Source of the DNA: an uncultured delta proteobacterium
GTDB taxonomy: Bacteria; Desulfobacterota; Desulfobulbia; Desulfobulbales; BM004
NCBI GenBank assembly: GCA_963783905.1
Contig: CAWAPG010000005.1
Location: forward strand, 120,576 to 184,575
DNA: 64,000 nucleotides
Reading direction: 5' to 3'
The translations under genes and the position numbers were made by a program. The notes beneath the pieces are model-generated. The model made no database searches. It was given only the letters and a program-made list of their open reading frames with translations, and was not told the DNA's origin. Shown in pieces: positions 229-6,593 of this stretch. The stretch's first letter is position 1, and every line of letters begins with the position of its first letter.

Positions 229-636
229 ATGCGTGAGAATCTTTATATTGCAACTTCCAGACGTGAAGAGCTGGTGGATATTACTGTCCCGGTGCAGGAG
301 GCGGTAAAACGCACCGGAATCGAGAATGGAGTGGCCGTACTCTATATCCAGGGAGCCACTGCCGCCCTGATGATCCAGGAAAACTGGGATGAAAGCGTGC
401 AGACCGATATGGTGAGCCTGTTGCGCGGGCTTATTCCCAGGGGGGTCTGGCTCCATGACCAACAGGACTCCAATGGCGATTCCCATCTGAAGGCCGGACT
501 GATCGGGCCCTCCGAAACAATTCCCATCATTGATTCCAGGCTTGGCCTGTCCCGCTGGCAGAATATCTTTCTCTGCGAATTTGATGGCCCCCGCCCGGAG
601 CGGATAGTGGTGTTTACGGTTATCAGGGATGAATAA
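229..636 (+). CDS. yjbQ: YjbQ/UPF0047 family protein (secondary thiamine-phosphate synthase)
   Basis: Motifs DIT...TAAL.IQEN, NGDSHLKA and LGLSRWQNIFLCEFDGPR; ATG at 229 preferred over 166. Confidence 0.9.
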   Translation: MRENLYIATSRREELVDITVPVQEAVKRTGIENGVAVLYIQGATAALMIQENWDESVQTDMVSLLRGLIPRGVWLHDQQDSNGDSHLKAGLIGPSETIPIIDSRLGLSRWQNIFLCEFDGPRPERIVVFTVIRDE

Positions 637-780
637 GGATTTGTCTGAAAAAACGACGAAGCACAACCTTTTCATTTTTCGGTTCAGGGGCCGCTACCCT
701 GCAGCAGGAGCGAACACCACCGTACAGTTCCTTTTGAAGTATTGCTGAAGGCTGACAGCTGCTCGAAGACAGCTGCCCAT

Positions 781-823
781 AAAAAAATGCGGACCGAAGA
801 TCCGAAGACCAACGGTCCGCATT
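781..823 (-). terminator. Intrinsic terminator downstream of the rhodanese selenoprotein gene
   Basis: 11-bp stem AATGCGGACCG/CGGTCCGCATT followed by a T-run on the minus strand. Confidence 0.6.
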
Positions 824-856
824 CGAGGGCAAGATGGACATTACCGGTTCCGGTAA

Positions 857-2212
857 TTATTTCTCCGATATATCAAAAGATCCGTCCCGGCCGACCTGGA
901 CGACGGCATCAAGATACCTTGCCTGGTAGCCGTTGTCCTGCAGGGTTTTTAGGGCCATGCCCGCCATGATTCCCGTATTGCAGTGAACGATATATTCCTT
1001 GTCCTTGGAAAAATTTCCCAGGTTGTCGGCAAGCTGGCCCAGGGGGATGTTGATCGCCCCCGGGATAGTGCCTTCGGCGCCGGAGTCACGGACGTCAAGG
1101 ATGATTTTGTCGGAAGGTCTGGCTGTTGCTATCTGCCTGAACTCTTCTACCGTGATTTGTCCCGGCTTGATTTTTTTGACATAGACAATCTCGGTGGCAG
1201 GTGCGCCGGGAAAGAACTTGCCGTTCCAGCTCTTGGCGCCGCCATGCAGAACCGAAGCATTCTTGTATCCCCAGCTGCGGACAAGATCAAATGCCTCCCG
1301 TGAGGCCTGGTCGGTATCATACAGGATAACGGGGGCTGATTTGTCCTTGGGAAATCCATTTTTGGCAGCTGCCAGCTCAGTTGCGGGAATAGAAACCGCA
1401 CCTTTGATATGGCCTGCGGCTGCCTCTTTTATCGAACGCAGATCGATTAGAACATATGAGTCATCCGCGTGAATCATTTTTTTAAGTCCGTTGGCCGGCA
1501 AGACAACGAGGTTGCCCGCCTTTTTCCAGCCGGGGAGTCCTGAAGAGAGAACCTTTACATTGGTGTAGCCGAGTTTTTCCGCCGCACGGGCAGAAAAAGG
1601 ACTCATGGTTCAGGTAGGGCCGCCGCAATAAAAAACAAGCAGCCTGTCTTTATCCTGCGGCAGGATGGTGGTGCAGTTTTCATCAAAACTGTCAAAGGGA
1701 AGGGAGATGGCGGTTGGAATGTGACCGCCGAGGTAAGCGCCGGTCGGCCTGGCATCGATCAGGGTATAGCCGCCTTTCTCCGGTCCCATGGAGATCAGTT
1801 TCAGTACGTCATCATTAGTGAACTTCTGTTCGGCCGACACCTTATATGGTTGTTTAACGGCTATTTCAGTGGCCAGCGGTTTTGATTCATCGCCGGCAAA
1901 GCTCACGAGAATCTCTTTGCCTTTGGGAATCTTGTTAATGCCATCTGCGGTGGAAATTTCTTCACCGTCAATCACACTGGTTTTACCGTCATATTTAACC
2001 ACCCAGACGAGACCGCCCACTTTGACTTGCAGGGTGCTGAATTCGGATGAAACCTTGCCGAGATTACCGCGAACGGCATCAGGCCGGGGAGCATGGCATT
2101 TCTGACATGGACCGCCCACGGTCGGTTTGCCCGCCTCTGAAACTCCGGCAGTGCAGAACAAGGCTGCAACAAGCCCTGCCAGAAGCAGCGATGTTTTATT
2201 CCTGATTAACAT
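857..2212 (-). CDS. Periplasmic c-type heme / triple-rhodanese selenoprotein (Sec at codon 201, UGA 1610-1612)
   Basis: ORFs 1610..2362 and 857..1606 are in frame across a single TGA (VFYCGGPT-U-TMSPFSA); RBS GAGGAGG before ATG 2212; signal peptide, CQKCH, three rhodanese domains; SECIS-like hairpin follows the UGA. Confidence 0.85.
1571..1604 (-). promoter_or_regulatory. Bacterial SECIS-like hairpin
   Basis: GAG-UCC-UUUUUCUGCC-[CGUGC]-GGCGGAAAAA-CUC: 10-bp upper stem with a G-containing loop 21 nt after the UGA. Confidence 0.75.
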
Positions 2213-2277
2213 TTTTTCCTCCTCACATCTGAAATTAACGATACAAAAGACTTGGTATAATTGGCTGCGGTCAGTAT

Positions 2278-2293
2278 AGCAAAAGTTGTGCCA
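2278..2293 (-). promoter_or_regulatory. Sigma-54 -24/-12 promoter
   Basis: TGGCACAACTTTTGCT matches TGGCAC-N5-TTGCW, about 65 bp upstream of the ATG. Confidence 0.8.
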
Positions 2294-2517
2294 GTTCATT
2301 ATGACAAACCGTTTTACAGTCTGGACAAAACCGGCACTATAAGGCAGGACGGAAGAATCCAAAGGAGAATTGGTGAGACTCCATTGTGGGTGGGGAAAAA
2401 ATATAGCGATCAGGAAAAATTATCTGATAACGGGTATTCTCCCGGGATAGCGTTTAGGGGAAAAAACACCGGTTGAATCGGGTTCGGAAGAAAAATTGGC
2501 GTTAATGTCTTAACAGA

Positions 2518-2538
2518 TTAACGTTAAGCTAACGTTAA
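2518..2538. promoter_or_regulatory. Palindrome, candidate activator-binding site
   Basis: TTAACGTTA-AGC-TAACGTTAA, flanked by further GTTAA/TTAAC half-sites, about 230 bp upstream of the sigma-54 promoter. Confidence 0.35.
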
Positions 2539-3042
2539 TTAACGGATCATATGTTGAGAGAGGACTGTTTTTTGCAGTGGAATGACGCCCTGTTTGGTAA
2601 AAGAAAAACGCTGGGCAAAAAGCCTGCTGCTTCCTACCAGAATTGATCCATGCATGGAAAAAACAACATCCGACTTATCGGGCAGTTTGTTAAAGAGCTG
2701 GATTAAGTCCCAATAAGCACTGGAGAGGCGCAATGTTACATGGCCGTATTCCTGGGCCGGAATTGTCCGGCTTATCCTGTTTTTCCCGGAAAAGACCCTG
2801 ATGCCTTCAAGGTCCAGGGTATAGTCCACACCCTGGATGGTAAGGGCTTTTTCATTCGGATTGAATATCCTGAGATCGGCCAGCAGATTGACATGGCTCA
2901 GGGTCACATCCTGGACGTCTACCCGCATGAGATTAACCTCAGGCGGCACAACCTGGACCGTACTGCACGAAGAGAGCACGACTGCAAAAAGAATTGCTGT
3001 CAATGCAAGGGAACAACTGGTCCTGAAAGACGGGCTGATCAT
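2539..3042 (-). CDS. LEA type 2 / WHy domain lipoprotein
   Basis: Lipobox LSSC; LRIFNPN..L.I.G.DY.L motif. Confidence 0.8.
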   Translation of the reverse strand: MISPSFRTSCSLALTAILFAVVLSSCSTVQVVPPEVNLMRVDVQDVTLSHVNLLADLRIFNPNEKALTIQGVDYTLDLEGIRVFSGKNRISRTIPAQEYGHVTLRLSSAYWDLIQLFNKLPDKSDVVFSMHGSILVGSSRLFAQRFSFTKQGVIPLQKTVLSQHMIR

Positions 3043-3458
3043 GGCTTAACTCCTGCAGCGGAAGTGATGGGAAGTGTTTTGCGTCGGGTCAGCTTTTTGA
3101 TAGATCTGTAGGGATAATGTAACAAAACTGCTAAAATGTAAAAAGATTAATGTGAAAACGGGAAAAATTTAAAAAATTTTCTGAGAAATAAAAGCTTGCA
3201 GTTCCCCCGTGCCGCTGGAATGGTATAAAAAATTGCGATGGAACCCGGAACGGCTGTACATTTCGATAAATGTTCAGGATGTGAAACGATCCTGCCGGGA
3301 TATTTTTTATCGAGACAAATTGATGCGAATAAAAAGAATGTTTATTAATGTTCTAGCTGCTATTCGAACCAAGGAATAAATTAACGCCTGTAAGCAACGA
3401 GTTTTTCCGAAAATATCAGAAGTCAGTGATTTCCCGAGGAGGAAATTTGGAAAGAAAA

Positions 3459-3815
3459 ATGTCTGAAAGTAAACAGAGGACGAAAGAAAGGGCGCCTGTT
3501 AATTTCCAGGTTGATTATATCCATGATGGTGATTATGCCCTTTCCTTCAGTAAGAACATATCATTCGGCGGCATGTTTCTGTGTACGCAGAAACCGCCGG
3601 AGCCGGGATGCAAAGTAAAACTTATATTTCCTTTGGAAGGATATTATCAGGCGGAGGTCATGGCACTCGTCGTCTGGATCAACCGGTCGACGAAGGGCGG
3701 GGAATCAGGCATGGGTGTCCAGTTTTTAAGCCCGCTTTCATCCCATCTGAAGGAGAACATTATGAAAGATATTAAGCGGGTTGAAATTCTTAAAGAGCAT
3801 GAAGGTTTTGCCTGA
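3459..3815 (+). CDS. Single-domain PilZ protein
   Basis: RxxxR (QRTKER), NISFGGMF, VVW...GMGVQF. Confidence 0.85.
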   Translation: MSESKQRTKERAPVNFQVDYIHDGDYALSFSKNISFGGMFLCTQKPPEPGCKVKLIFPLEGYYQAEVMALVVWINRSTKGGESGMGVQFLSPLSSHLKENIMKDIKRVEILKEHEGFA

Positions 3816-3894: not shown

Positions 3895-4806
3895 ATGCAA
3901 AATTCAGTTACCACGAGTATAGATGCCGAGTCCTGTATCGGCTGCGGACTCTGCGTTGCAGTCTGCCCTGCCGGGACGATTTCCATGCAGGATGGCAAGG
4001 CGGTGGTTACCGGCACCCATTCCCTGGCCTGCGGTCACTGTGAAGCGGTCTGTCCGGCATCGGCCATACGGGTTGAGGTCTTGGAACGTCCTTTTACCCT
4101 GGCCACTGTTGCGGTGGATGACCGCTGGCTGGGGCACGGTGAGTTTGATCCCGCCCTGCTTGTACGATTGATGCGGTCAAGACGTTCCTGCCGTAATTAT
4201 ACAGACAGGGAGATTGACCGCACGGTCCTGGAAGATCTGGTCAAAATAGGTGCCACTGCACCATCCGGCACCAACTCACAACTATGGACCTTTACCATTC
4301 TGGCCAGCCGCAGGGAAGTTGTGCGTCTCGGGGAACAGGTGGCCCGGTTTTTTCATAAATTAAACAGGATGGCCGCCAAACCATGGCTGCGGCTTTTATC
4401 AAAACTGTTTGCCGGTGGTACCCTGGACCATTATTACCGACGCTATTTTGCAACTGTGCGAGAAGGGCTCCTGCTCTGGGAAGGGGAAGGGGCGGATACG
4501 CTTTTTCATGGTGCTGCTGCAGCTATCCTGATCGGTGGTAAAAAATCCGCCGGTTCACCGTTGGAGGATGCACTTCTGGCAAGTCAGAATATTCTTTTGG
4601 CGGCGCACAGCCTCGGTCTGGGATCCTGCATGATAGGATTTGCGGTTGAAGCTATAAAAAGGGACAAACAGATAAAAAAGATATTGCAGATGCAGGAGGA
4701 TGAATCTGTTTATGCCGTCATCGCCCTGGGGTATCCGGCTGAGAAATACCGGCAAACAGCCCGCAGAAAAAAGATTATCCCCCGTTATCCGTTGCACATG
4801 AAATGA
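3895..4806 (+). CDS. Nitroreductase family protein with N-terminal 2x[4Fe-4S] ferredoxin domain
   Basis: CIGCGLCVAVCP and ACGHCEAVCP; RRSCRNY, APSGTNSQ, GLGSCMIG. Confidence 0.9.
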   Translation: MQNSVTTSIDAESCIGCGLCVAVCPAGTISMQDGKAVVTGTHSLACGHCEAVCPASAIRVEVLERPFTLATVAVDDRWLGHGEFDPALLVRLMRSRRSCRNYTDREIDRTVLEDLVKIGATAPSGTNSQLWTFTILASRREVVRLGEQVARFFHKLNRMAAKPWLRLLSKLFAGGTLDHYYRRYFATVREGLLLWEGEGADTLFHGAAAAILIGGKKSAGSPLEDALLASQNILLAAHSLGLGSCMIGFAVEAIKRDKQIKKILQMQEDESVYAVIALGYPAEKYRQTARRKKIIPRYPLHMK

Positions 4807-6593
4807 AAATGCGACCAGCCAATACACCAGAATCGGGCCCGGTGCTGGAAAATTCCTGGAAGTCAGTCCGGCTGATCCTGCCTTTTTTCCGGCAGTATCG
4901 CATGCGGCTCTTTATCGGTTTTTTGTCTCTGCTGGTGGTCAACGGGCTGCAACTGGTGATTCCCAGGATCATCAAACATGCGGTGGATGGTCTGCAGAAT
5001 GAAGGGATATCATCAGCGACCCTTCTGCACTACGGCATCCTGATAGTAATCCTTGCCCTCACTATCGCCCTGTTTCGTTTCGGCTGGCGCTACATGATAC
5101 TGGGTTTTTCCCGCCACCTGGAAAAGGACCTGCGGAACTGGCTTTTTTCCCACCTCCTGACCCTGGACCGCATGTATTTTCAGCGCAGCACCACCGGGGA
5201 AATTATGGCCCTGGCAACCAATGATCTGGCGGCTGTTCAACTCGCCGGCGGCATGGGCCTGGTGGCCTTTGCCGATGCCCTTGTCCTCTCGCTTGCCGCT
5301 TTTTCCTTCATGGCATATATCCATCCGGGCCTGACACTCATCGTCATCGTGCCCATGCCCCTGCTCGCTCTGCTCACCCGGTTCCTTTCCGGCCGGCTGC
5401 ATCGGCATTTTAAAAAGGTACAGGAACAGTTTTCCAGGCTGACGGAGTTTTCCAGAATGTCGATTAATTCCATCCGCATAATCAAGGCATATACCCTGGA
5501 AAAAAAGGAGACGGAAAGGTTTGAAATAATGGGGCGTGAATATGTCCAGGACAACCTGCGTCTTGCCAAGGTGCAGGGAACCCTGTTCCCGGTTTCCGGA
5601 CTGATAGCGAATACCAGCATGCTTCTGGTTCTTTTGTTCGGCGGCCGTTTGACGATTCAGGGCAGTATCACCATCGGTGATTTTGTCGCCTTCACCTCGT
5701 ACCTGTTCATGCTGACCTGGCCGATGATGGCATTGGGATGGGTGACAAATCTATTCCAGCGGGGGGTTACATCCCTGCAGCGGATTCAGAATGTCCTGGA
5801 TGAACGCCCGGTTATAGTTTCACCCGTACGACCCCATCCTGTCCCCGAAAAGGTGGATACCATTACCGTAAAAAACCTTACATTTTCCTATCCCAACCAG
5901 AGTGAGCCGGTTCTGCGGAACGTATCCCTTGAGATTCAGCGGGGAATTCTTGGAATTGTCGGCAGGACCGGATCCGGCAAAACAACGCTTACCCATCTTC
6001 TGGCCAGGCTCTATCCGATTGACAAGGGCACCATCTACTGGGATGGCATTGATGTCAACCGGTTCGACCTTGGCGAAGTGCGCCGAAAAATTGCGCTGGT
6101 GCCGCAGGATATCACGGTATTCTCAGATACTGTCAGGGCTAATATTACCATGGGCAAACCAGGGGCTGCCCGGGAGGAGGTCGAGGCGGTTGCGGAAGCC
6201 GCTGCTATTCATGCGGAGATTCTCGAATTGCCGCAAGGGTATGATACCAGGATCGGCGAGAAAGGCATAAAACTTTCAGGCGGTCAGCGGCAGCGAATAG
6301 CCCTTGCCAGGGCCCTGCTGTCTGACAGGCCGGTTCTTATTATAGACGATGGTCTGTCCGCGGTGGATATCGAAACAGAGCATGAAATTATTGGCGCCAT
6401 GCGTCCTTTTATCAGGGACAGGATCTGTATTGTGGTTTCACACCGCCTTGCACCGTTGGTTCAGGCAGACAGGCTTGTGGTCATGGACAGGGGGAAAATC
6501 ATAGCCCAGGGGAATCACGAATATCTGCTGCAGTCAAATAAATTTTACGCCACTATTTACGAATACCAGACGAGCAGGACGGGAAAAAAATGA
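4803..6593 (+). CDS. ABC exporter fused permease/ATPase (heterodimer subunit 1, MdlA/YheI-like)
   Basis: TMD plus GRTGSGKT and LSGGQRQR; degenerate Walker B IIDD. Confidence 0.9.
   Translation: MKMRPANTPESGPVLENSWKSVRLILPFFRQYRMRLFIGFLSLLVVNGLQLVIPRIIKHAVDGLQNEGISSATLLHYGILIVILALTIALFRFGWRYMILGFSRHLEKDLRNWLFSHLLTLDRMYFQRSTTGEIMALATNDLAAVQLAGGMGLVAFADALVLSLAAFSFMAYIHPGLTLIVIVPMPLLALLTRFLSGRLHRHFKKVQEQFSRLTEFSRMSINSIRIIKAYTLEKKETERFEIMGREYVQDNLRLAKVQGTLFPVSGLIANTSMLLVLLFGGRLTIQGSITIGDFVAFTSYLFMLTWPMMALGWVTNLFQRGVTSLQRIQNVLDERPVIVSPVRPHPVPEKVDTITVKNLTFSYPNQSEPVLRNVSLEIQRGILGIVGRTGSGKTTLTHLLARLYPIDKGTIYWDGIDVNRFDLGEVRRKIALVPQDITVFSDTVRANITMGKPGAAREEVEAVAEAAAIHAEILELPQGYDTRIGEKGIKLSGGQRQRIALARALLSDRPVLIIDDGLSAVDIETEHEIIGAMRPFIRDRICIVVSHRLAPLVQADRLVVMDRGKIIAQGNHEYLLQSNKFYATIYEYQTSRTGKK

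Follow-up and report, generated by a model that had tools for sequence, protein, structure and literature searches.

Rhodaneses that contain selenocysteine (Sec, U) are an already known class of proteins. Several forms have been listed in published tables, among them a "form 1" with a UxxS motif, and these tables give neither an architecture nor a function (PMC13188914, PMC9312934). Here, we describe a gene for such a protein on the minus strand, at positions 2212..857, of a 64,000-nucleotide stretch of DNA from an uncultured delta proteobacterium of the Desulfobulbales (assembly GCA_963783905.1, contig CAWAPG010000005.1, positions 120,576 to 184,575). This whole stretch is referred to below as the window. 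The predicted product combines a CxxCH motif, the signature of heme c attachment, with three rhodanese domains. This heme-motif, triple-rhodanese form, which is set apart from the listed forms by their descriptions, is new within the class, widespread and mis-annotated.

The described rhodanese selenoproteins resemble the window protein only in parts. Form 1 (PF00581, exemplar WP_010941598.1) carries UxxS, and the U-T-M-S of the window protein is alike, a comparison made at the level of the table row. TsoB (NF045694), a fusion of rhodanese and DsbD with the motif UxxxxU, shows the same four-residue spacing, but the window protein has a cysteine in the first position, a single Sec and no DsbD part. 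The TsoB model was the third-best NCBIfam match, with 58.8 bits against a cut-off of 805, and it covered residues 147-234 only. The family rhodanese_LYCAU (NF041203) has CxU, in contrast to the C-x4-U of the window protein, and its model scored 65.3 bits (cut-off, 115), matching best in domain 2. No NCBIfam model reached its cut-off on the window protein. As far as the tabulated descriptions go, none of the rhodanese selenoprotein forms 1 to 5 (PMC13188914), TsoB or LYCAU has a CxxCH/OB domain or three rhodanese domains.

Other relatives are found among proteins that lack Sec. Tandem rhodaneses in which only some of the domains keep the catalytic cysteine are known from YnjE and multi-rhodanese sulfurtransferases (2wlx/3ipo, 1yt8, 6mxv), and E. 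coli YnjE is a periplasmic protein of three domains. We observed fold matches to these proteins with E-values of 8.8e-15 to 1e-9; however, they have neither Sec nor a CxxCH/OB domain, and residues 1-130 of the window protein lie outside the matches. NADH-dependent persulfide reductases and coenzyme A (CoA)-persulfide/disulfide reductases (3nta/4ocg, 8a56, 3icr) join a redox module to a C-terminal rhodanese that presents persulfide sulfur, and this rhodanese is matched by domain 3 of the window protein at E-values of 2.3e-21 to 1.5e-14. These are cytoplasmic NAD(P)H flavoproteins, whereas the window protein is predicted to be exported and to carry a putative heme c and a Cys/Sec pair. Finally, barrels of the CusF and DUF5666 families have a fold like that of residues ~46-119 (template modeling score [TM] of ~0.5), but they contain no CxxCH, and there is no significant sequence match between them and the N-terminal domain of the window protein.

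A functional parallel is offered by MccSep/ExtKL of Geobacter sulfurreducens, described as a pentaheme selenoprotein polysulfide reductase with a Cys-ligated heme and a catalytic Sec (PMC13510729). In the available description, this is a periplasmic c-type heme protein in which Cys and Sec act together in polysulfide reduction, and the window protein may work in a similar way. Both families occur in overlapping taxa (Desulfobacterota, Nitrospirota). The two proteins are nevertheless unrelated, since MccSep has five hemes and no rhodanese, while the window protein has one CxxCH and no match to NF040886 at an E-value of ≤0.1. MccSep was also considered as a partner protein and was ruled out, the family (NF040886) being absent from the genome. 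An earlier note on this DNA had cited Geobacter ExtH as an example of a rhodanese selenoprotein. This does not agree with the available descriptions of that cluster, in which ExtH is a 49-kDa rhodanese-like lipoprotein and ExtKL/MccSep is the selenoprotein. The same note had named no characterized protein with the architecture found here, and our literature search likewise gave no description of a CxxCH-rhodanese selenoprotein.

An in-frame UGA codon within a single gene

The gene occupies one long frame on the minus strand, from an ATG at 2212-2210 to a stop codon at 859-857. When TGA is read as U, this frame encodes 451 amino acids and contains exactly one nonstandard step, U201 at 1612..1610, in the context FYCGGPT-U-TMSPFSA. 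Translation with genetic code table 11 yields two open reading frames instead, 1610..2362 (with a sensible start at 2212) and 857..1606. Gene callers accordingly split the gene into 1610..2212 and 857..1606, and the halves appear in public sources under the names "hypothetical protein" (N-terminal) and "rhodanese-like domain-containing protein" (C-terminal). That two rhodanese frames are joined in frame by one TGA had been claimed before and is borne out here, the gene being on the minus strand; all the features that had been listed with this claim (CQKCH, C-x4-U, YDTDQ, HCNTG and a length of 451 residues) are present in the sequence. The elements that delimit and define the gene are as follows.

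857..2212, minus strand: one reading frame of 451 codons and a stop, in which UGA at codon 201 is read as selenocysteine (homolog alignment; Pfam match across the TGA)
1610..1612, minus strand: UGA codon for selenocysteine 201 (codon counts in 80 loci; Cys in full-length homologs)
2278..2293, minus strand: sigma-54-type promoter motif TGGCACAACTTTTGCT (-24 GG/-12 GC), 66-81 nucleotides (nt) upstream of the ATG
780..804, minus strand: intrinsic terminator with the stem CGGATC..GGTCCG followed by a T-run, 53 nt past the stop codon

We interpret positions 2212..857 as one monocistronic, sigma-54-dependent gene for an exported 451-residue selenoprotein. Taken jointly with the heme-linked mechanism of sulfane-sulfur conversion that is proposed below, we give this reading a probability of about 0.7.

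The codon at position 201 was investigated in homologs. A scan of contigs from one genome per species gave 226 relatives, and codons were counted in the best 80 of these 226 loci, which come from Desulfobulbales, Desulfocapsaceae, Desulfomonilaceae, Nitrospirota/Thermodesulfovibrionales, Rokubacteria and one Chloroflexota metagenome-assembled genome. The aligned codon is TGA in 76 of the 80 loci, TGC in 3 and TGT in 1, and no second in-frame TGA recurs within the gene in this set. One of the Sec forms, locus L073, lies on the complete chromosome of a cultured Desulfopila isolate. In a protein search, the best 120 matches comprised 117 C-terminal halves of 248-250 amino acids and 3 full-length proteins of 437-451 amino acids (P0009, P0020 and P0064), and in all three of the latter Cys aligns with U201. 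The earlier note had expected Cys at the UGA position, and this is what both the full-length homologs and the four non-TGA loci show. Moreover, the best Pfam rhodanese match (residues 145-232) runs over the TGA position.

Contigs from two public DNA sequencing runs span the TGA codon. One of them represents a divergent strain (run X2, window positions 1120-1903) in which 38 of 784 nt differ; all 38 differences are listed, none falls at 1610-1612, and the TGA is kept. Sequencing error and pseudogene decay are therefore excluded. The contig of the divergent strain does not show the TGC or TGT that had been named beforehand as an outcome speaking against Sec.

A conserved hairpin downstream of the UGA codon

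Recoding of UGA in bacteria depends on a selenocysteine insertion sequence (SECIS) within the coding region, and the usual rules of the bacterial models (bSECIS) concern its distance from the UGA and its loop. The hairpin following the UGA of the window gene is UUUUUCUGCC-CGUGC-GGCGGAAAAA, with 10 bp including one G-U pair and a loop that starts 21 nt after the UGA. A hairpin of this length, distance and G-containing loop had been pointed out previously; its core helix proved to be conserved and covarying.

1574..1598, minus strand: SECIS hairpin, 10 bp in the window genome, with a conserved core helix (1593..1579) and the 5-nt loop CGUGC (covariation)

For this analysis, 63 nt around the TGA were aligned without gaps from the 76 TGA loci and the window, which gave 77 sequences (74 distinct). 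Pairing of the core helix is kept throughout this alignment, in which three pairs of the hairpin are invariant. In pair 24-36, two wobble positions meet, one from a Ser codon and one from an Ala codon, which the protein leaves unconstrained; each of the 74 distinct sequences has a standard pair here (UA in 30, CG in 25, UG in 17, GC in 1 and GU in 1). The covariation score of the hairpin was 0.215, compared to 0.131 ± 0.011 for shuffled alignments, none of which (0/500) reached the observed value. We found 78.9% of hairpin cells to be paired, versus 36-52% when the partner was slid by 1-3 columns, and RNAalifold recovered the same five-pair core. As for the loop, 75 of 77 sequences have G as its second base. 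The Cys forms were read by eye: the loop consists entirely of A in two of the four, and a pair without variation among the Sec forms is disrupted in one. Such changes match what relaxed constraint after a switch from Sec to Cys would give, in a sample that is small (n = 4). One nucleotide change of the X2 strain (1595) lies in the nonconserved lower stem of the hairpin.

The machinery for Sec insertion, which the earlier note had proposed to look for, was found in the genome, which is 100% complete as judged by marker genes. It encodes a tRNA-Sec (73 bits; anticodon tca [UCA] according to ARAGORN), selA (622 bits), selB (367 bits) and two copies of selD (G000:C10:84919-85848 and G000:C2:51486-52415), and tRNA-Sec, selA, selB and selD all score above curated cut-offs. 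Each selD copy contains one in-frame TGA, and the two are probably selenoprotein forms of selenophosphate synthetase. On the comparative evidence, it is very well supported that the UGA at codon 201 is read as Sec by means of a coding-region SECIS just downstream, in agreement with the earlier proposal of one gene with a Sec-encoding UGA.

Three rhodanese domains and a Cys-x4-Sec loop

The rhodanese family PF00581 matched the protein with 153.2 bits (cut-off, 22.2) in three stretches, the best of which covers residues 145-232. The domains and their catalytic positions are located as follows.

1505..1819, minus strand: rhodanese domain 1 (residues 132-236), with the C196-x4-U201 loop (Pfam match 145-232; domain alignment)
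1625..1627, minus strand: TGC codon of Cys196 at the canonical rhodanese catalytic position (TGC or TGT in 80/80 loci)
1199..1504, minus strand: inactive rhodanese domain 2 (residues 237-338), where Asp occupies the catalytic position (Cys there in 5/80 loci only)
893..1165, minus strand: rhodanese domain 3 (residues 350-440), whose six-residue loop holds the canonical Cys411 (codon 982..980; Cys in 80/80 loci)

When the three domains were aligned with each other, C196 and C411 both fell on the canonical catalytic position. Domain 2 reads LYDTDQ at this place, with D299 and no Cys, and domain 3 reads HCNTG. The loop of domain 1 exceeds the classical six-residue loop of domain 3 by two residues, and in this extended loop Sec201 lies five positions past the catalytic Cys. 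Conservation was assessed in an alignment of 30 full-length members out of the 77 sequences (alignment A3). C36, C39, H40, G49, C196, position 201, S204, P205, C411, T413 and G414 are invariant in it, as are the D-x-R motifs that open each rhodanese domain. The codon three positions after the UGA, that of S204, was read by eye as a Ser codon in all 77 sequences. Most family members read C-G-G-x-T-U-R in the loop of domain 1; the Arg after Sec is Thr in the clade of the window protein and Val, Met or Gln elsewhere.

The confident AlphaFold model of the whole protein (mean predicted local distance difference test score [pLDDT], 86.1; predicted TM score [pTM], 0.69) contains three alpha/beta domains and a beta-rich one besides a short helix that bears the CxxCH. 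It matches the folds of multi-rhodanese sulfurtransferases (1yt8, 6mxv, EanB and YnjE), and none of these matches extends over the first 130 residues. For domain 3, the best sequence matches were the rhodanese domains of persulfide and CoA-disulfide reductases (E-value of 2.3e-21).

The N-terminal domain and its CxxCH motif

The region that precedes the rhodanese domains comprises three elements.

2132..2212, minus strand: signal peptide (residues 1-27, predicted cleavage after SEA), read by eye, with a low-confidence helix at residues 6-20 in the model
2093..2107, minus strand: CQKCH (residues 36-40), putative covalent heme c site (CxxCH in 78/78 loci covering the region)
1829..2131, minus strand: small domain (residues 28-128) forming an OB-like beta-barrel, with DUF5666/CusF as relatives (domain model; fold search)

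The N terminus has the makeup of a signal peptide when read by eye (RNK, a hydrophobic run and SEA|GK), as had been stated earlier, and all 78 homologs whose 5' end is intact have an N terminus of the same kind. The CxxCH motif lies ~8 residues past the predicted cleavage site, and its His is invariant in the 78 loci that reach the N terminus. Modeled alone, the N-terminal domain forms a small OB-like barrel (pLDDT, 89.2; pTM, 0.80). The best fold matches obtained with it were CusF, the anticodon-binding N-terminal domain of LysRS and domain I of RuvA (TM of ~0.5), and none had an E-value of ≤0.001. Pfam gave no match for this domain and no cytochrome family on the whole protein. A profile of the domain searched against the Protein Data Bank (PDB) returned 15 matches, all of them weak and all of them c-type cytochromes (best E-value, 0.012).

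Searched against 1.84 billion representative proteins, the same profile detected 202 proteins at an E-value of ≤0.001. Among the best 150 of them, 33 end four residues after the loop YC, which is at the Sec codon, and 12 read through with Cys as judged by a strict pattern. Other architectures include the N-terminal domain with two or three rhodanese domains and tandem barrel repeats alone, the latter with matches to DUF5666 (PF18914) and CusF_Ec (PF11604). In distant relatives, the motif is C-x4-CH, CxxC followed by N, V or K, or missing (P0139, P0162, P0130, P0172; P0176, P0192, P0209, P0245). Some of the distant relatives without any motif still keep a rhodanese loop that stops at the Sec codon.

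ResB and CcsA, which belong to System II of cytochrome c maturation, are encoded in the genome. Thus, of the marks of a c-type cytochrome, a CxxCH motif, predicted export and a maturation system were found, and a cytochrome fold or family match and a distal ligand were not. A covalent heme c on the CxxCH of the N-terminal domain is most likely, and we infer it with fair confidence because the spacing of the cysteines varies while CH stays fixed, the His is invariant, the motif follows directly on the signal peptide, and ResB and CcsA are present. The heme might also be five-coordinate or ligated by Cys or Sec. The earlier description of the protein as a periplasmic triple rhodanese with heme c stands as far as the signal-peptide-like N terminus, the strictly conserved CxxCH and the three rhodanese domains are concerned, while the attachment of heme stays a prediction, as does the function put forward with it, a coupling of electron transfer by the heme to sulfur or selenium transfer.

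Proposed function and alternative explanations

A highly expressed periplasmic rhodanese clade ("pRho"), universal in cable bacteria, is reported in a 2026 paper (PMC13047784), the main text of which does not contain the word "selenocysteine" and uses "haem" only for a tetrahaem gene. According to the available text of several papers, no enzyme has been assigned to the opening steps of elemental-sulfur disproportionation or to those of sulfide oxidation in Desulfobulbales, and unnamed rhodanese-like proteins are repeatedly indicated there. The genome of the window contains dsrA. The family described here would be exported, under dedicated sigma-54 control and equipped with three reactive centers, namely, the heme motif, the Cys/Sec pair and a catalytic Cys.

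We propose that the protein is a rhodanese that has become an oxidoreductase of sulfane sulfur linked to heme. Three features favor redox activity over the carrying of sulfur: the strict Cys-x4-Sec pair within one loop, the same spacing in TsoB, where the rhodanese is joined to a DsbD-like electron-transfer part, and the close resemblance between domain 3 and the rhodanese domains found in persulfide reductases. In this mechanism, heme c would be attached to the CxxCH in the periplasm by the System II machinery, and expression would respond to a signal sensed by a two-component system. Cys411, Cys196 or both would accept sulfane sulfur, supplied by polysulfide, thiosulfate or a persulfide, in the form of a persulfide. 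Sec201 would then attack this persulfide, which would release sulfide and leave a Cys196-Sec201 selenenylsulfide, and the heme would pass electrons from the periplasmic cytochrome pool to re-reduce the selenenylsulfide. Alternatively, the sequence would be reversed during sulfide oxidation.

A bolder version of this proposal, which we regard as tentative and rather doubtful, is that the family is a new class of periplasmic sulfane-sulfur oxidoreductases in which a single c-type heme on an OB fold exchanges electrons directly with the Cys-x4-Sec selenenylsulfide, and that it is the enzyme that makes or consumes zero-valent sulfur in sulfur-disproportionating and sulfide-oxidizing Desulfobulbales, cable bacteria included, and in Nitrospirota. 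Cys196 or Sec201 may even serve as the distal heme ligand, which would be a convergence with the His/Cys-heme and Sec site of MccSep. If this version were true, part of the highly expressed "periplasmic rhodanese" signal that has been reported would come from a mis-split gene.

Several observations weigh against the reading of the locus as a gene for a heme-linked selenoprotein. The fold energy of the hairpin as a single sequence is unremarkable (z = -1.55), with 11 of 200 shuffles folding equally well; the hairpin stands above chance because of its conservation, that is, the TGA in 76 of 80 loci and the covarying helix. The N-terminal domain has an OB/CusF-like fold, and its fold search (0 matches at an E-value of ≤0.001) yielded no cytochrome fold. 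There is no second conserved His or Met in alignment A3 that could be the distal heme ligand. CxxCH is present in only 99 of the best 150 relatives of the N-terminal domain, and since some relatives carry CxxC[N/V/K] or no motif, heme does not seem to be needed by every one of them. The replacement of Arg by Thr after Sec in the clade of the window protein may mean that the chemistry of the loop differs between clades. Finally, there is no conserved operon, the commonest neighbor family being found in only 14 of 81 loci, so that neither a partner nor a substrate can be read from the context.

If the TGA were a true stop, the locus would hold two separate genes, for a 200-amino-acid CxxCH protein and a 249-amino-acid double rhodanese, or one broken gene. 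This is how gene callers and all public sources annotate it, with the C-terminal halves making up 117 of the 120 best matches and the N-terminal halves called "hypothetical protein," and in the window genome an ATG follows two codons after the TGA. However, the stop would cut the rhodanese fold inside its active-site loop, and it would do so at the identical codon in 76 of 80 loci from several phyla, with only Cys codons otherwise. In 39 of the 77 sequences there is no in-frame ATG, GTG or TTG within 19 codons after the TGA, and a separate downstream gene therefore cannot be the rule. Together with the covariation of the SECIS and the complete Sec machinery, this makes a true stop extremely improbable. 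A selenoprotein in which the CxxCH is a redox-active dithiol or a metal site on a CusF-like OB domain, with no heme electron transfer, is a different matter. The missing cytochrome fold and the missing conserved distal ligand keep this explanation alive, the fold resembles that of the periplasmic copper chaperone CusF, relatives match CusF_Ec and DUF5666, and distant ones have CxxCN, CxxCV, CxxCK or no motif at all. We nonetheless consider it unlikely, given that the His is invariant in 78 of 78 loci, that the C-x4-CH variants shift the spacing of the cysteines while CH stays, which is the pattern of a heme c site, that the motif follows ~8 residues after the predicted cleavage site in a genome with System II maturation genes, and that the PDB profile matches, weak as they all are, are solely c-type cytochromes.

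The function itself may be read in other ways. Loops of seven residues with the pattern CX5R mark the phosphatase and arsenate reductase members of the superfamily. The longer loop of domain 1 and the C-G-G-x-T-U-R of most family members would fit a loop of this type, as in Cdc25/Acr2, and the substrate of domain 1 would then be, instead of sulfur, an oxyanion whose central atom is larger (selenite, tellurite or arsenate) and the protein a periplasmic selenite or arsenate reductase. We hold this to be distinctly improbable, as conservation of the Arg is lacking, domain 3 belongs to the classical sulfurtransferase type, members of the family occur across organisms that metabolize sulfur in a dissimilatory way, and neither ars nor selenium-respiration genes were seen among the recurrent neighbors. 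The protein could also be a plain, non-redox periplasmic sulfur carrier like Sud or YnjE, which would deliver polysulfide sulfur to a membrane reductase (Psr/Phs), with Sec as a better nucleophile and heme in a structural or sensory role. Its closest folds are multi-rhodanese sulfurtransferases, including the periplasmic three-domain YnjE, and highly expressed periplasmic rhodaneses are described beside Psr/Phs in the available Desulfobulbales literature. A carrier would, however, leave the strict Cys-x4-Sec in one loop and the conserved CxxCH hard to explain; TsoB, in which this spacing recurs, is a fusion with a DsbD-like electron-transfer module, and the gene described here is not linked to psr or phs in the loci examined. 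We therefore judge a carrier role to be unlikely as well and prefer the heme-linked oxidoreductase.

In their split form, the two halves are seen in studies of transcriptomes, proteomes and comparative genomics as a 200-amino-acid "hypothetical protein" with a signal peptide and a 250-amino-acid "rhodanese" without one. Through the split at the UGA, the second half can be wrongly assigned to the cytoplasm, and both the dependence on selenium and the heme can go unnoticed. Once joined, the halves give a specific candidate, open to purification and testing, that may carry out sulfur redox chemistry in the periplasm of Desulfobulbales and Nitrospirota, and the family adds an unmodeled entry to selenoprotein annotation.

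Promoter, second gene copy and distribution

The promoter motif TGGCACAACTTTTGCT is the sole match to TGGCAC-N5-TTGCW in the 64-kb window, for which 0.10 matches are expected. A sigma-54 motif was observed at -81 to -86 in all six close orthologs (L022-L027) and in none of 72 more distant loci. A search of window positions 600-2600 gave no sigma-70-like site, and rpoN is present in the genome.

The genome carries a second copy of the gene on another contig (G000:C7:93574-94884, equal to 5024..6415 of locus L106, minus strand). This paralog encodes 463 amino acids, with CAECH, YCRGYS-U-GMSP and the Cys of domain 3; its TGA is at codon 194 and is followed, at the same distance as in the window gene, by the SECIS-like hairpin TTTGCC-AGGTT-GGCAAA. 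Directly upstream on the same strand lie a sigma-54 response regulator (L106, 6610..7953) and then a membrane sensor kinase, and the sequence TGGCAT-N5-TTGCA is found ~62-77 nt before the ATG of the paralog. The regulator shares 38-42% identity with the Nitrospirota regulators, which is ordinary for the NtrC family.

Across the 81 loci, the recurrent neighbors were a sigma-54 response regulator (14 loci), a BipA-type GTPase (8), a histidine kinase (7), an inositol-monophosphatase family protein (6) and adenosine 5'-phosphosulfate (APS) kinase (5). In a few Nitrospirota loci (L029, L035 and others), the gene is followed by the APS kinase (5 loci) or by the inositol-monophosphatase family protein (6 loci), which may be CysQ-like. 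APS kinase and possibly the CysQ-like neighbors are sulfate activation genes.

We found a family match with an E-value of ≤1e-60 in 102 of 151 sampled genomes of the same order. The family is present in 85 of 120 high-quality genomes and in 44 of 59 genera of the order, and many genomes have 2-4 copies. By hand count, 78 of the 138 listed matches of the order are marked "1 TGA" and 60 have none. The earlier impression of a singular architecture thus holds in that no paper describing it was found, and gives way with regard to occurrence, as the family is widespread and present twice in this genome.

The genes nearby in the window are unrelated and encode a UPF0047 protein, an LEA_2 lipoprotein, a PilZ protein, a nitroreductase-ferredoxin and an ABC exporter. 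The nitroreductase-ferredoxin (3895-4806, plus strand) is a fusion of 303 amino acids with an N-terminal 2x[4Fe-4S] ferredoxin domain and a nitroreductase-family domain, and it adjoins the genes for the PilZ protein (3426-3815) and the ABC exporter (4803-6593).

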